The position numbers and the translations under genes are program-made. Below, piece by piece: positions 48,089 to 52,686 of a stretch of DNA of 64,000 nucleotides; the stretch's first letter is position 1, and each line of letters opens with the position of its first letter. A model generated the notes under the pieces. That model made no database searches and was not told the origin of the DNA. It saw only the letters and a list, made by a program, of their open reading frames with translations. Source of the stretch: Actinomycetota bacterium (GTDB lineage: Bacteria; Actinomycetota; Actinomycetes; Nanopelagicales; Nanopelagicaceae); the NCBI GenBank assembly GCA_015660815.1, contig JACSDF010000003.1, forward strand, positions 133,704 to 197,703. Reading direction: 5' to 3'.

Positions 48089-48991
48089 GTGGATGAGTTA
48101 ACGGCGGCAGGTATCACTGAGCCAGGTTTGCGCGCATCGTATGCAGAGTGCAAACGACTCAATGCCCTGCATGGGAAAACATATTTCCTTGCCACCTTGC
48201 TGCTCCCAAAAGCGAAACGCCCATTTGTACATGCCCTGTATGGCTTTGCCAGATTTGCCGATGAGATCGTTGACGATTTAGCCTCCCAACTGAGCACTGA
48301 AGAAAAAGCTCAAGCACTTTCAAACTGGGGAAATAACGTGCTAAAGGATCTTCGACGCGGATCTAGCGAAGACTTAGTCGGTGGCGCATTGATAGATACC
48401 GTTAATCGATTTGCTATCCCTCATGAATATTTTGAAGCTTTTTTACACTCAATGACAATGGATTTAACGGTCCAGGAGTATGAAACTTTTGATGATTTAA
48501 TGGAATATGTCTATGGATCTGCAGCCGTCATTGGTCTTGAGATGGCACCAATCCTGGGCTTTTCCGACGTCGCGGCTTTAGATTCCGCGAAAAAACTTGG
48601 GACTGCATTTCAGCTTGCAAATTTTATTCGCGATGTTGATGAAGATCTAGATCGTGGCAGAATTTATCTGCCAATTCAAGAGCTTGCACTTCATGGCGTA
48701 ACTCGTGAAATGTTGGAGGCTCGAGTATTGACACCCCAAATTATTGATGCGCTCAAATTCCAAATTGCACGAGTAAGAAAGCTTCAAGCCCAGGCAGCTC
48801 CTGGAATCGCCCTTTTAGATGCATCAAGTCGCCCTTGCATTGAAGCTGCAAGTGAATTGTACTGCGGGATTGTAGACGAAGTTGAGAAAATTGGTTACGA
48901 CATTTTTAATAGACGCGCAAAAACATCAACTATTCGTCGCTTACGAGTTGCTGGCGCTGCTTTTTTAAAGCGTCAATTCGTATCCAGTTAG
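48089..48991 (+). CDS. crtB: Phytoene synthase
   Basis: HGKTY, LYGFARFADEIVD, SMTMDL, FQLANFIRDVDED..RGRIYLP. Confidence 0.94.
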   Translation: MDELTAAGITEPGLRASYAECKRLNALHGKTYFLATLLLPKAKRPFVHALYGFARFADEIVDDLASQLSTEEKAQALSNWGNNVLKDLRRGSSEDLVGGALIDTVNRFAIPHEYFEAFLHSMTMDLTVQEYETFDDLMEYVYGSAAVIGLEMAPILGFSDVAALDSAKKLGTAFQLANFIRDVDEDLDRGRIYLPIQELALHGVTREMLEARVLTPQIIDALKFQIARVRKLQAQAAPGIALLDASSRPCIEAASELYCGIVDEVEKIGYDIFNRRAKTSTIRRLRVAGAAFLKRQFVSS

Positions 48992-49253
48992 ATAGAACTC
49001 CTAACACGAGAGCGAAACCAAAGAGTAGGTCTTCAACGGGTGCAGAAGCTATACGAACTCCAGTTATTACATTTGGGTCATACATGACAATGTTTCGAGA
49101 GGTTAGCCACCAATTAGTCAGCAACTGAAAGCCCAAGATAATTGCATAAGAGGTCCAGAAAACTCTGCGTCTCATTAAACGAATCTCTGTTATGTAGTAG
49201 TCAAAGACAATGGCGCAAAGAACGGCAAAGATCGCTAATTGTGTGTAACTCAT
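48930..49253 (-). CDS. crtYd: Heterodimeric lycopene cyclase subunit (CrtYd-type)
   Basis: Small hydrophobic protein with PVEDLLFG motif; start placed at ATG 49253. Confidence 0.8.
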   Translation of the reverse strand: MSYTQLAIFAVLCAIVFDYYITEIRLMRRRVFWTSYAIILGFQLLTNWWLTSRNIVMYDPNVITGVRIASAPVEDLLFGFALVLGVLSNWIRIDALKKQRQQLVSDE

Positions 49254-49255
49254 CT

Positions 49256-49576
49256 CTAAACTGGCCAATCTTTTTTAACACGTCTGACCGCCTCGATTGT
49301 CATAATCGCTGCAATAGGAACAATGATGAAAAACAGGTATTCCTCAAGTGGAATCCCGAAGGGACCAAAAATTCCGAGTATTTGATCCCCATCAAATCGC
49401 CAGTGCCCACTTCGAATTGCATAGGCATCCCATGCAATAAATAGAAAGGAAATCGGAGCAACTGCCAATATCACACGCTTAATGCGCTTAAGCACTCCAA
49501 CTTTCAAAAAGAGCTCTAACCAGAAAGAACCAATGATTGTGAAGACAATCATGGTGAGATAGCCAAATTTAAGCAC
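49256..49576 (-). CDS. crtYc: Heterodimeric lycopene cyclase subunit (CrtYc-type)
   Basis: FIAWD..AI..GHW.F, GIPLEEYLFF motif. Confidence 0.82.
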   Translation of the reverse strand: MLKFGYLTMIVFTIIGSFWLELFLKVGVLKRIKRVILAVAPISFLFIAWDAYAIRSGHWRFDGDQILGIFGPFGIPLEEYLFFIIVPIAAIMTIEAVRRVKKDWPV

Positions 49577-49598
49577 GGGGTAACGCTACTCTACGAAC

Positions 49599-49680
49599 TA
49601 CGGGAGCCCATCAAGGCTGAGAGGGTCTGAAATTCAGACCGACCGTTTGACCAATCCGGTAATGCGGATGTGGAAAGGAA
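49599..49680 (+). ncRNA. TPP-class riboswitch, variant with altered P4/P5 (pyrophosphate-sensor) region
   Basis: P2 CGG/CCG, P3 AGCC/GGCT, conserved CTGAGA, P3a GGTCTGA/TCAGACC, L5 GTAATG, P4 CCA/TGG; J4/5 and J5/4 deviate from the GAU/CGU consensus; upstream of pnuC. Confidence 0.85.
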
Positions 49681-49686
49681 TCAATC

Positions 49687-50262
49687 ATGTCAACAATTCT
49701 CTTCACTGCTTGGGGCTACGGCGTATCAATTTTGGAAGCCGTTGCCGCATTAGTCTCCTTCATTGGAGTCTGGCTAGGTACAACTGGTAAGCGCATCACA
49801 TGGCCTTGGTGGGCTGCAAGTAGCACTCTCTATATGATCTTCTTTTATCAAGCAGATCTATTTGCAAGTGCAGCCGCCCAGATAGTTTTTATTATCGCCG
49901 CATATTTAGGGTGGCGGGATTGGGCACCGACAGGTGCTAAACCAGGTCCATTATCTAATCGCAACCGCGCACAATGGGCAGCTCTAACCATAGTTAGCGT
50001 TGCTCTACTTACACCTTTGCTCACAAGTTTAGGTGCGGCGGCAACGTGGCAGGATGCAATTTTATTTGTTGGAAGTTTGATCGCCCAAATATTGATGGTC
50101 TATGAAAAAATTGAATCCTGGGTTGTATGGCTAATCGTAGATGCTGCAGCGACTTATCTTTATGCCAGTCTGGGATATTGGTTCACAGCGCTTTTGTATT
50201 TTGCTTTTACTATCATTGCACTCATTGGATGGAAGCGCTGGAATGACTCTTATAGCCATTGA
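49687..50262 (+). CDS. pnuC: PnuC-family vitamin transporter (probable thiamine transporter, PnuT-like)
   Basis: 7 TMs, WPWW, YLGWRDW, WQDA, K.ESWVVWLIVD; preceded by a TPP-class riboswitch. Confidence 0.88.
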   Translation: MSTILFTAWGYGVSILEAVAALVSFIGVWLGTTGKRITWPWWAASSTLYMIFFYQADLFASAAAQIVFIIAAYLGWRDWAPTGAKPGPLSNRNRAQWAALTIVSVALLTPLLTSLGAAATWQDAILFVGSLIAQILMVYEKIESWVVWLIVDAAATYLYASLGYWFTALLYFAFTIIALIGWKRWNDSYSH

Positions 50263-50734
50263 CGGTCCTGCTGGGGCCGGGAAAACAACTTTGGCTACCA
50301 AATTTGAAAGGGATTTGTCACTCAATAATTCGGTCTCGGTCATTCACATGGATGATTTATATGCTGGCTGGGAAAATGCACTTGATGAGCAATTAACGCA
50401 AAAACTCAAAGTGATCGTCGAAGCATTCACATCACACAACGCCTTCACGATTTCAATTTTCAACTGGAGTTCAAACTCCTTTGATTCATTTCGAACAATA
50501 GAGCCGACCGACATCCTAATTATTGAAGGCGTTGGAGCGGGTCAAAAAGTAGTTCGTGATGCTGGCGCAACGCTGTATTGGCTCGATATCGAACCCTCCA
50601 TTGGCTTGGAGCGAGTTCTTGCCCGTGATGGTCTCCGCATTGAACTCCAGATGCAAACATGGCAAATCGACCAGGCGAGTTTCTTCGAGAGTGATTTAAC
50701 ACGCAACCATGCAGACCACATCATTACTTCATAG
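50243..50734 (+). CDS. Small P-loop kinase (uridine kinase/NRK-like fold)
   Basis: IAIDGPAGAGKTT, IHMDDLY, IIEGVGA, RDG; start placed at ATG 50243, overlapping the pnuC end by 20 bp. Confidence 0.8.
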   Translation: MTLIAIDGPAGAGKTTLATKFERDLSLNNSVSVIHMDDLYAGWENALDEQLTQKLKVIVEAFTSHNAFTISIFNWSSNSFDSFRTIEPTDILIIEGVGAGQKVVRDAGATLYWLDIEPSIGLERVLARDGLRIELQMQTWQIDQASFFESDLTRNHADHIITS

Positions 50735-50790
50735 CTCCTCTTGGCGCGCCCCGAGCACTTCTTTAAGGTCGAATCCATAAAATTACCCAC

Positions 50791-52686
50791 ATGTCGGATC
50801 TATCGGGTGAGCTCATTGATAGCCGCTATCAATTAATTCGACAGGTAGCCAATGGTGGGATGGCATCTATATATGAGGCCATAGATACTCGCCTAGATCG
50901 CAAAGTTGCCGTAAAAATCATGCACCCACATCTTGCTCAAGACGATGTCTATGTCACGCGTTTCATTCGTGAAGCTAAAGCGGCAGCAGCGCTTTCGCAC
51001 CCCAATATTGTCGCCGTACAGGATCAAGGTTGGAATCAAAATGGAGTCCCAGCAGTCTTCCTAGTCATGGAGCTGATTGAAGGAAGTACATTACGTGAAT
51101 ACTTTAATGAGCGCGGACGCTTCGAAATCAAGGATGCACTTAATTATCTAACTCCAATCTTGAGCGCACTGAGTGCAGCACACTCGATTGGAATAGTGCA
51201 TAGAGATATTAAGCCAGAAAATATCTTGGTCTCACATGAAGGTCGCGTCAAAATCGCTGACTTTGGTTTAGCACGCGGTGACGTCATCGGTTCGACCATG
51301 ACTGCAGAGTCGAGTGTCATTCTAGGTTCGGTCTCATACCTTTCCCCCGAACAAGTCCAGCGAGGAATTGCCGATGCACGAAGTGACGTCTATGCCGTCG
51401 GGATAGTCGCCTTTGAGATGCTCACGGGCGAGAAACCATTCTCAGGTGATACACCAATCCAAATTGCTTATATGCATGTCAATGAAGATGTTCCATCGGT
51501 ACGATCAAAGCGCAGAGAGATTCCCCAAGCATTGGATGAGTTAATATCTCGCGCCACTAACCGTGATCCAGATTTGCGACCTCGAAACGCCGGCGAGTTT
51601 CTCAAGGATTTAGAAGTAATTGCATTGGGGTTAGATCCTAAGAAGAACCAGATGAGACTTGACCTTGATTTACCGGTTGAACCTATTCGTGTGCCATCAC
51701 GCACAAAAGTAAAGCCCGCAATTATTCCTGAAGCGAGCGTTGAAATCAAAGAGACGACTAAACAAATTCGACGAAGAGATGAAAAGAAACATCGAACGAG
51801 CAATCGAGTACGACGAAATAGAAAAATCGCACTCTTGCTTGCAGTCGCGCTAGGAGTGGGCGGTTGGTACACACTTGTAGGACCGGGCTCACGCATAGTT
51901 GTGCCCTCTGTGGTTGGAGGCACTTACGATGATGCGGTTTCTGCATTCACTCCTCTTGGAATTACGAATATTTCCGTGGTAAATCGCTTTGATGAAGAAA
52001 ACTCTTCTGGAACGATTATTGAATCCATACCACCTGGTGGAGGCCGTATCGAAACTGGTGAGAAAGTTACATTAATTATCTCCAAAGGAGCAGAGCGCTA
52101 TACGATCACATCGCTAGTTGGATTAACTCCTGCGGCAGCAGCTGCATCGATCAATAAAAGCCCTTTGAAGGTTGGTAAGAACATTGAGGTATTCAACAAT
52201 GCGATCCCAAAGGGTTTTGTCATTGGCTCGAAACCCAAAGTAGGTACCAAGGTTAAGCGAAATTCAGTGGTGAATATTATTGTGAGTAAAGGCATCGAAA
52301 CCTTTCTAATTCCATCCTACGTTGGTCTTAGTGGTGAGCAGGCACTCAATGAATTGACCGAATCGGGTTTTAATGTGGAAAGCATTTATTCCTTTAATGA
52401 AAACATTCTGGCGGGAACAGTAATATCCCAAAACCCACTAGGAAATTCACAAGCAGCTAAAGGGAGTTCAATTAACCTCATCGTCTCAAAGGGAACAGAA
52501 TTTGTTTTTGTTCCAAATGTCTTCTCATTAGACGAGGTAACTTCAGTGAGAATGCTTGAGGATTTGGATCTTAAAGTTATAGTGAAAAGAGTAGGAGTGA
52601 TGACAACGAAAAAAACCACCACTATCTCCCCTAAAGTGGGCAGTAAAGTTAAACGTGGCAGCACTATCACAATTACCGTAAGGTAG
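50791..52686 (+). CDS. PASTA-domain Ser/Thr protein kinase (PknL/PkaF-like)
   Basis: GGMA, VAVK, HRDIKPEN, DFG, YLSPEQ; one TM; several PASTA repeats. Confidence 0.93.
   Translation: MSDLSGELIDSRYQLIRQVANGGMASIYEAIDTRLDRKVAVKIMHPHLAQDDVYVTRFIREAKAAAALSHPNIVAVQDQGWNQNGVPAVFLVMELIEGSTLREYFNERGRFEIKDALNYLTPILSALSAAHSIGIVHRDIKPENILVSHEGRVKIADFGLARGDVIGSTMTAESSVILGSVSYLSPEQVQRGIADARSDVYAVGIVAFEMLTGEKPFSGDTPIQIAYMHVNEDVPSVRSKRREIPQALDELISRATNRDPDLRPRNAGEFLKDLEVIALGLDPKKNQMRLDLDLPVEPIRVPSRTKVKPAIIPEASVEIKETTKQIRRRDEKKHRTSNRVRRNRKIALLLAVALGVGGWYTLVGPGSRIVVPSVVGGTYDDAVSAFTPLGITNISVVNRFDEENSSGTIIESIPPGGGRIETGEKVTLIISKGAERYTITSLVGLTPAAAAASINKSPLKVGKNIEVFNNAIPKGFVIGSKPKVGTKVKRNSVVNIIVSKGIETFLIPSYVGLSGEQALNELTESGFNVESIYSFNENILAGTVISQNPLGNSQAAKGSSINLIVSKGTEFVFVPNVFSLDEVTSVRMLEDLDLKVIVKRVGVMTTKKTTTISPKVGSKVKRGSTITITVR

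Follow-up and report, generated by a model that had tools for sequence, protein, structure and literature searches.

We propose, with a probability of roughly 0.6, that a conserved gene pair of freshwater actinobacteria is a thiamine uptake-and-trap operon under TPP-riboswitch control, in which a Pnu-family channel would admit the vitamin and a non-orthologous candidate thiamine kinase of the uridine-kinase fold would feed an orphan ThiL. No group of freshwater bacterioplankton is more abundant than the acI actinobacteria, which are thiamine auxotrophs. The pair lies in a 64,000-nucleotide stretch of DNA (hereafter the window) from an acI/Nanopelagicales-like genome of 1.585 Mb that is 98% complete. 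Judging by the names on homologous proteins, its relatives are freshwater acI ('Candidatus Planktophila', Nanopelagicales-like), and the DNA sequencing runs in which the stretch occurs come from freshwater metagenomes. What the analysis shows directly is the gene order, the overlap, the conservation of the riboswitch, the fold and the gap in the pathway. The locus comprises the following features:

49590..49692, + strand: divergent TPP (THI-box) riboswitch aptamer, RF00059 37.2 bits
49687..50262, + strand: pnuT, a Pnu-family facilitator and predicted thiamine channel, 191 aa, PF04973 127.9 bits, TIGR01528 75.3 bits
50243..50262, + strand: overlap of the pnuT 3' end and the kinase 5' end, 20 bp, read as translational coupling
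50243..50734, + strand: P-loop kinase of the uridine-kinase fold, 163 aa, candidate thiamine kinase (thiamine to TMP)
50791..52686, + strand: PknL/PknB-like PASTA Ser/Thr kinase, a conserved downstream neighbour outside the module

An earlier note on this DNA had described a PnuC-family gene overlapping by 20 bp a gene for a 163-aa P-loop protein of the uridine-kinase/NRK type. The overlap was confirmed at 50243-50262, with the kinase ATG at 50243 and the pnuT stop codon TGA at 50260-50262, and the protein class was borne out by Pfam matches and fold; the kinase stop codon occupies 50732-50734. A 197-aa kinase frame starting at 50141 was discarded, the ATG/GTG at -20 being the only start common to all 26 close relatives. 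The first usable start of the kinase was located in 46 pnuT-kinase pairs representing 12 genera and falls within the 3' end of pnuT in every case, with an overlap of 1-40 nt; the length of the overlap and the N-terminus of the kinase vary among genera, yet the overlap itself is present in 46/46 pairs. The Pfam match of the pnuT product covers its full length, and NCBIfam, through TIGR01528, names the transporter PnuC. It is the sole PnuT-type gene of its own genome. Some relatives carry a second, distant PnuC-family paralogue (~30% identity to PnuT) away from any kinase (G070 contig 44: 74747-75310; G054 contig 1: 1392573-1393136), which may be the PnuX-type riboflavin transporter known in one acI strain from the work of Kang et al. 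2017. Upstream of the locus, crtYc (48930-49268, -), which encodes a lycopene cyclase subunit, converges on crtB (48089-48991, +), the two genes sharing 62 nt at their 3' ends (48930-48991), and the two lycopene cyclase subunit genes overlap at 49256-49268.

No Rfam family matched anywhere in the window at the gathering score. The TPP element appeared at relaxed thresholds (E 1e-5, local search), and by gathering score neither it (37.2 vs 54.3 bits) nor its counterparts in relatives (32-48 bits) belong to RF00059. It is the only TPP match in its own genome. A sub-threshold match of 32-47 bits nevertheless lies directly 5' of pnuT in 28/28 further loci from 12 genera, which are all the genera sampled in the order, and a match of 48.4 bits occurs in a metagenomic contig unrelated to the order's loci (L116). 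When 29 leaders were aligned, the CUGAGA and GGUAAUGC cores were invariant, and compensatory changes occurred in 9 of the 19 RNAalifold pairs, in P3, its extension and P4/P5. Judged by the conserved core (CUGAGA, ACC..GGUAAUGC) and by P2/P3/P4-P5 helices with covariation, the leader does belong to the family. Because its position is conserved and its helices covary across the 29 leaders, we regard the divergent riboswitch as a real element on comparative grounds. The earlier description of pnuC as riboswitch-led thus stands as regards a conserved, covarying TPP element upstream, but not as regards the Rfam cut-off.

The Shine-Dalgarno sequence GGAAAGGA (49672-49679) sits in the 3' tail of the riboswitch, 7 nt 5' of the pnuT ATG, and no terminator follows the riboswitch; control is therefore likely to be translational. 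The P1/anti-SD pairing is strong in some relatives and weak in the window (mean z -0.4). Sites returned by a promoter and terminator scan of the locus were no more frequent than expected by chance, and a weak hairpin is found 3' of the kinase stop codon (50740-50755).

The leader also bears on nicotinamide riboside, which the earlier note had offered as an alternative substrate and which would make the pair an NAD salvage unit comparable to PnuC-NadR. NCBIfam does call the transporter a PnuC equivalog (75 bits), and the kinase profile weakly resembles human NRK1 (38 bits), in a match confined to the N-terminal two thirds. But the leader is a TPP-type aptamer that covaries as such, not an NAD+-II/pnuC-motif RNA (PMC7749635). 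In addition, as detailed below, the unit stands in place of thi genes at a thi locus, the kinase persists with ThiB-type thiamine importers, and it lacks the ribose-binding motif common to Udk and NRK. Since the switch is a TPP switch, we disfavor this substrate and consider a nicotinamide riboside kinase extremely improbable, leaving thiamine as the proposed vitamin.

We then examined the thiamine pathway around the locus. The earlier note had proposed to search the rest of the genome for thiL, thiN and thiK, and this search found ThiL (206 bits, above its cut-off) on contig 53 (357-1160), away from pnuT and the kinase gene. Profile searches of the same genome found neither TPK, ThiE, ThiD nor canonical Udk, and no true ThiK. 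The same holds across the order, where ThiL is present in 149/151 genomes, ThiE in 4/151 and TPK (PF04263) in 0/151. With ThiL present almost order-wide, ThiE rare and TPK missing, the conversion of thiamine to TMP has no assigned enzyme, and ThiL is left an orphan. Judged by this gene content, acI cells depend on imported thiamine, which they have to turn into TMP.

Two genes of the APH fold were considered as the missing thiamine kinase and rejected. One, choline-kinase-like (L092), reached 58 bits against the ThiK model, whose cut-off is 299, and occurs in 51/151 genomes; the other (L091) reached 30.6 bits against the same cut-off and occurs in ~44/151. Their distribution in the order is patchy, some of the copies are pseudogenised, and many closed genomes have neither gene; a requirement shared by the whole order is therefore unlikely to be covered by them. 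In the window's own genome the choline-kinase-like gene lies on contig 27 (29831-30805; L092:1306-2280, -), divergent from a sarcosine/dimethylglycine-dehydrogenase-like gene. Among the 51 relatives that have it, many copies carry 1-3 in-frame stops, and the gene is apparently under loss across the order.

The kinase itself matches Pfam families AAA_18 (34.5 bits) and PRK/uridine kinase (27.5 bits) weakly. It scores 85.6 bits over its full length against NF005115 (PRK06547, 'hypothetical protein'), whose cut-off is 173, and 24.7 bits against TIGR00235 (Udk), whose cut-off is 220; it is thus a member of neither, and by these profile scores it forms a divergent subfamily of the superfamily that includes NF005115/PRK06547. 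Its motifs are a Walker A (GPAGAGKTT), HMDDLY-GW, IIEGVG and R..RDG; among homologues the segments HMDDLY-GW, (L/I)(I/L)EGVG and R..RDG are conserved, and positions D7, G8, G13, K14, G42, W43, W75, G96 and R128 are invariant. An AlphaFold (AF2) model built with 93 homologues had a pLDDT of 97.9, and Foldseek grouped it with uridine-cytidine kinases and phosphoribulokinases (TM ~0.78, 20-22% identity); the value for UCK2/Udk, again ~0.78, points to a small-molecule kinase fold in the model. When PDB sequences were searched by profile, the uncharacterised 1RZ3 came first (77 bits), ahead of Thermus Udk (57), UCK2 (47) and NRK1 (38). The kinase had no match in Pfam or NCBIfam to ThiK (TIGR02721, APH fold), its own fold being P-loop, and none to the TPK catalytic domain (PF04263/ThiN). 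The NadR-type RNK family was likewise absent from its Pfam and NCBIfam matches, and it does not qualify as NRK1-like. Family searches and fold therefore agree with the earlier view that this protein is neither ThiK, ThiN nor ThiL.

Profile alignments showed that the Udk segment 'NYDHPDAFD' is an insertion relative to the kinase family, where it is absent, and that the residue aligned with the base-reading His varies; neither the ribose-binding (Y/F)DHPDAFD motif of Udk nor the base-reading His/Tyr is found in the kinase. From UCK2 structures, we take this segment to hold the ribose hydroxyls, and the His presumably reads the base. The missing segment and the variable His speak against a nucleoside or nicotinamide riboside as substrate. 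In their place the kinase has the invariant W43 and W75, two tryptophans of the acceptor region that would be well matched to a ligand both cationic and aromatic, as thiamine is.

Within the order, the kinase is present in 149/151 genomes, and in ~134 of these 149 it is immediately preceded by a PnuT orthologue in the same orientation. The neighbourhood survey that the earlier note had called for found the order riboswitch, pnuT, kinase kept across the whole order, together with the start overlap in all the pairs. Thirteen of the 149 genomes have the kinase without PnuT, and eight of these were examined: all carry another importer led by a TPP riboswitch, seven of them a ThiB-type thiamine-binding protein with a permease and one a YkoE-type component. 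The ThiB-type protein was scored against NCBIfam in one copy, that of G054, and reached 227.7 bits (TIGR01254). Since PnuT-less genomes keep the kinase with a riboswitch-led thiamine importer, the kinase appears to follow thiamine import, whatever the transporter. Occurrence of the kinase independently of pnuC, which the earlier note had set against its own proposal, is thus literally observed in 13/149 genomes, but the thiamine role is not refuted by it, given the importers found in 8/8.

One PnuT-less genome, G058, preserves the trace of the loss. There (L084:5290-5485, -; contig 39) an in-frame deletion removed pnuT and left 8 N-terminal and ~13 C-terminal codons, while the riboswitch, the Shine-Dalgarno sequence, the ATG and the overlapping GTG of the kinase were kept, so that a mini-ORF of ~21 codons now stands behind an intact TPP-type leader. 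In two genomes, G051 and G054, the kinase occurs without a riboswitch.

The only genus in the order without the kinase, g8 (two genomes, G070 and G112), yielded a P-loop fragment only when searched with the kinase family profile. In this genus the slot between crtYd and pknL, exactly the position of riboswitch, pnuT and kinase in other genera, holds thiE, an Rv2175c-like gene, a TPP riboswitch, thiO, (thiS) and thiG:

L082:9147-14680: thi slot of G070
L083:5458-10974: thi slot of G112

Scores in the slot were 187.6 bits for thiE, 57-61 bits for the canonical TPP riboswitch, 328 bits for thiO and 345 bits for thiG. The arrangement presumably resembles that of other actinobacteria. The acI leader and the thiO leader of this genus have at least the aptamer core in common; the P4/P5 region of the acI leader is unlike that of the canonical thiO leader. 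An HMP permease, CytX-like and riboswitch-led, is likewise present in the genus, and the search for a thiamine importer found none there. Because g8 has the thi genes and pknL but lacks the kinase, we read the kinase as going with salvage and not with pknL, and a single riboswitch-bearing slot would carry either biosynthesis or salvage genes.

The relation with pknL is the basis of another explanation, in which the kinase is a housekeeping small-molecule kinase, for example a nucleoside kinase, of the pknL neighbourhood, and the riboswitch-pnuT cassette landed upstream without conferring any thiamine role. The kinase gene lies directly upstream of pknL in all 50 order loci and also in a relative with 34% identity that lacks pnuT, and it persists without pnuT and, in the two genomes named above, without the riboswitch. 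Its nearest fold is that of the uridine-cytidine kinases, its own genome has no canonical udk, and the wider family is found without thiamine context. Against this, pknL is present in g8 without the kinase; coupling of the kinase start to pnuT was seen in 46/46 pairs, while a spacer of ~56 nt separates the kinase from pknL in the window; and the pnuT deletion in G058 retained the riboswitch before the kinase. A metagenomic contig of GC ~54% (L116:4-1285) further carries, in order, a tRNA, the TPP riboswitch, pnuT (53% identity), the kinase (36% identity) and a convergent SDR gene, with neither pknL nor crt genes, showing the module outside the crt-pknL neighbourhood; when kinases of this type were searched in species genomes, one distant Corynebacterium MAG was the only find. 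The protein has neither the ribose motif nor the base-reading His of Udk, and a housekeeping kinase would leave the thiamine to TMP gap unfilled order-wide. Altogether, we consider this explanation unlikely.

Part of the conservation of the kinase may still be plain synteny with pknL, because the two always adjoin in the order and an RNA-library contig bridges both. This 331-nt metatranscriptome contig, 98% identical to window positions 50563-50893, comprises the 3' end of the kinase gene, the 56-nt spacer and the start of pknL, and hints at read-through transcription, although its source may include DNA carry-over. Short RNA-library contigs also cover parts of pnuT and of the kinase gene, and none among them, where DNA carry-over is likewise possible, bridges the two by at least 31 nt on each side. 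The synteny all comes from one order and so reflects a small number of independent events: the kinase was gained or lost once, pnuT was lost a few times, and the pair is known in one other setting.

We further investigated the kinase family outside the order. It was present in 54/121 sampled genomes of the class (~45%), including genomes of Streptomyces size, and in the C. glutamicum control. Distant homologues from other actinobacteria (25-33% identity) stood in varied contexts, and no pnuC or thiamine context was found among them. The kinase domain also forms an N-terminal fusion with a chorismate-binding enzyme resembling anthranilate/aminodeoxychorismate synthase, which was seen in one actinobacterial genus and among metagenomic proteins:

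P0228, P0267: kinase-chorismate-binding fusion proteins
L043:1-1989, - strand: kinase-chorismate-binding fusion
L086:5001-7028: kinase-chorismate-binding fusion

These fusions suggested a shikimate kinase role, which was rejected in view of the presence of aroK in the window's own genome (134 bits). Class-wide, the family showed no link with ThiB, being present in 13/24 ThiB-positive and 41/97 ThiB-negative genomes, and in 4/8 ThiB-positive families of the sample. Because the wider family neither has a thiamine neighbourhood nor tracks ThiB, the acI kinases may be a specialised subfamily. That the whole PRK06547/1RZ3-like branch of the uridine-kinase superfamily consists of unrecognised thiamine kinases is an improbable extension; if it were true, there would be a general actinobacterial route from imported thiamine to TMP, whose role the acI operon merely exposes. 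PF04263 (TPK_catalytic) also gave matches above its cut-off in half of the class genomes sampled, but these are short (model positions 9-44) and lie in ORFs of ~400 aa; by their extent they are not true TPKs, and automatic pathway calls could mistake them for thiamine pyrophosphokinase.

The small kinase is thus the strongest candidate for the trapping enzyme, which would turn imported thiamine into thiamine monophosphate, and we infer its substrate and product on this basis. Neighbourhood, pathway gap, family and fold results support the earlier proposal of a non-orthologous thiamine kinase, which we hold to be somewhat better than an even bet. The locus has the makeup of a Pnu-type module: a facilitator of the 7-8 TM Pnu/PnuC family that PF04973 spans in full, directly upstream a TPP riboswitch that is a marker of thiamine specificity (below the gathering score), and a co-operonic kinase gene coupled to pnuT and predicted to phosphorylate the vitamin. 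When TPP is scarce, the leader would let the ribosome start on pnuT, and the kinase would be translated by coupling from the end of that gene. PnuT, as a passive channel, would let thiamine diffuse in; the kinase would phosphorylate its hydroxyethyl group with ATP, yielding TMP. The TMP would not be carried out again by PnuT, leaving the thiamine trapped, and ThiL, encoded elsewhere, would convert it to TPP. The kinase would in this way be a non-orthologous replacement of ThiK (EC 2.7.1.89) on the uridine-kinase/NRK P-loop fold. Consistent with trapping, the Shewanella PnuT transports thiamine, and neither TMP nor TPP (PMC5749112).

A role in thiamine metabolism could also concern another substrate or step: PnuT might bring in a thiamine analogue or breakdown product on which the kinase acts, or the kinase might be an additional TMP kinase. 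TPP-riboswitch control and coupling to pnuT indicate a thiamine-related role only, not the exact substrate, and pyrithiamine and oxythiamine are also carried by PnuT (PMC5749112). However, HMP and HET would be useless without ThiE and ThiD, the step from TMP to TPP is already covered by ThiL, and the one unassigned essential step is that from thiamine to TMP. Such a role seems to us quite unlikely, and phosphorylation of thiamine to TMP remains our proposal.

The proposed module can be compared with several known systems. PnuT-TPK modules (Bacteroides OMthi-PnuT-Tnr3; Shewanella PnuT) share with it a Pnu-family thiamine facilitator under TPP-riboswitch control and, as proposed for acI, a co-operonic cytoplasmic enzyme that phosphorylates the vitamin and blocks its exit (PMC5749112, PMC5613172). 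Unlike in those modules, the acI trapping candidate is a P-loop kinase and not a TPK, a family found in none of the order's genomes; it would be expected to add one phosphate, so that a separate ThiL is needed, and its gene starts inside pnuT. PnuC-NadR similarly combines a facilitator with a P-loop kinase that traps the vitamin as its monophosphate, but the acI vitamin would differ (TPP switch, thi locus), and the acI kinase is Udk/PRK-like, with no NadR-type Pfam match and no adenylyltransferase domain. E. coli ThiK (YcfN) carries out the reaction proposed here, thiamine + ATP -> TMP + ADP, and feeds ThiL; its APH/choline-kinase fold shows no similarity to the P-loop Udk fold of the acI kinase, which would be a case of non-orthologous displacement. 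With UCK2, NRK1 and the 1RZ3 'possible uridine kinase' (PF00485 superfamily), the acI kinase shares the fold, as modelled, the Walker A, the catalytic Asp of DD(L/F)Y, the (L/I)IEG strand and the R..RD lid. Unlike them, it is ~40 residues shorter, lacks the 'NYDHPDAFD' insert and a conserved base-reading His, has the invariant tryptophans, and falls far below the udk and PRK06547 cut-offs.

The novelty of the module lies in the kinase. In the passages that deal with acI PnuT, Kang et al. 2017 proposed the THI-element-led pnuC of acI as PnuT and stated thiamine auxotrophy (PMC5301498); the same passages make no mention of the downstream kinase. In a full-text literature search, no paper came up in which a thiamine kinase of the P-loop or uridine-kinase-like type is put forward. 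The earlier claim of a new uptake-and-trap module therefore gives way for its PnuT part, which these passages had already published, and is kept for the kinase idea. On balance we would place the module alongside PnuT-TPK and PnuC-NadR, with a published PnuT assignment and a newly proposed kinase role.

The locus offers a clear example of in-place replacement, salvage genes having taken over the slot of a biosynthetic operon (thiE, thiO-thiG), with a TPP riboswitch in both states. Current reconstructions of acI metabolism contain a channel (PnuT) and a TMP kinase (ThiL) with no enzyme between them, and a named candidate makes this gap directly testable. If the proposal is true, the kinase would join ThiK and TPK as a third way of phosphorylating thiamine, with a structure unrelated to either, and 'uridine kinase' and 'AAA family ATPase' annotations would be corrected on thousands of metagenomic proteins. 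It would also allow better predictions of vitamin B1 auxotrophy and cross-feeding in aquatic microbiomes.
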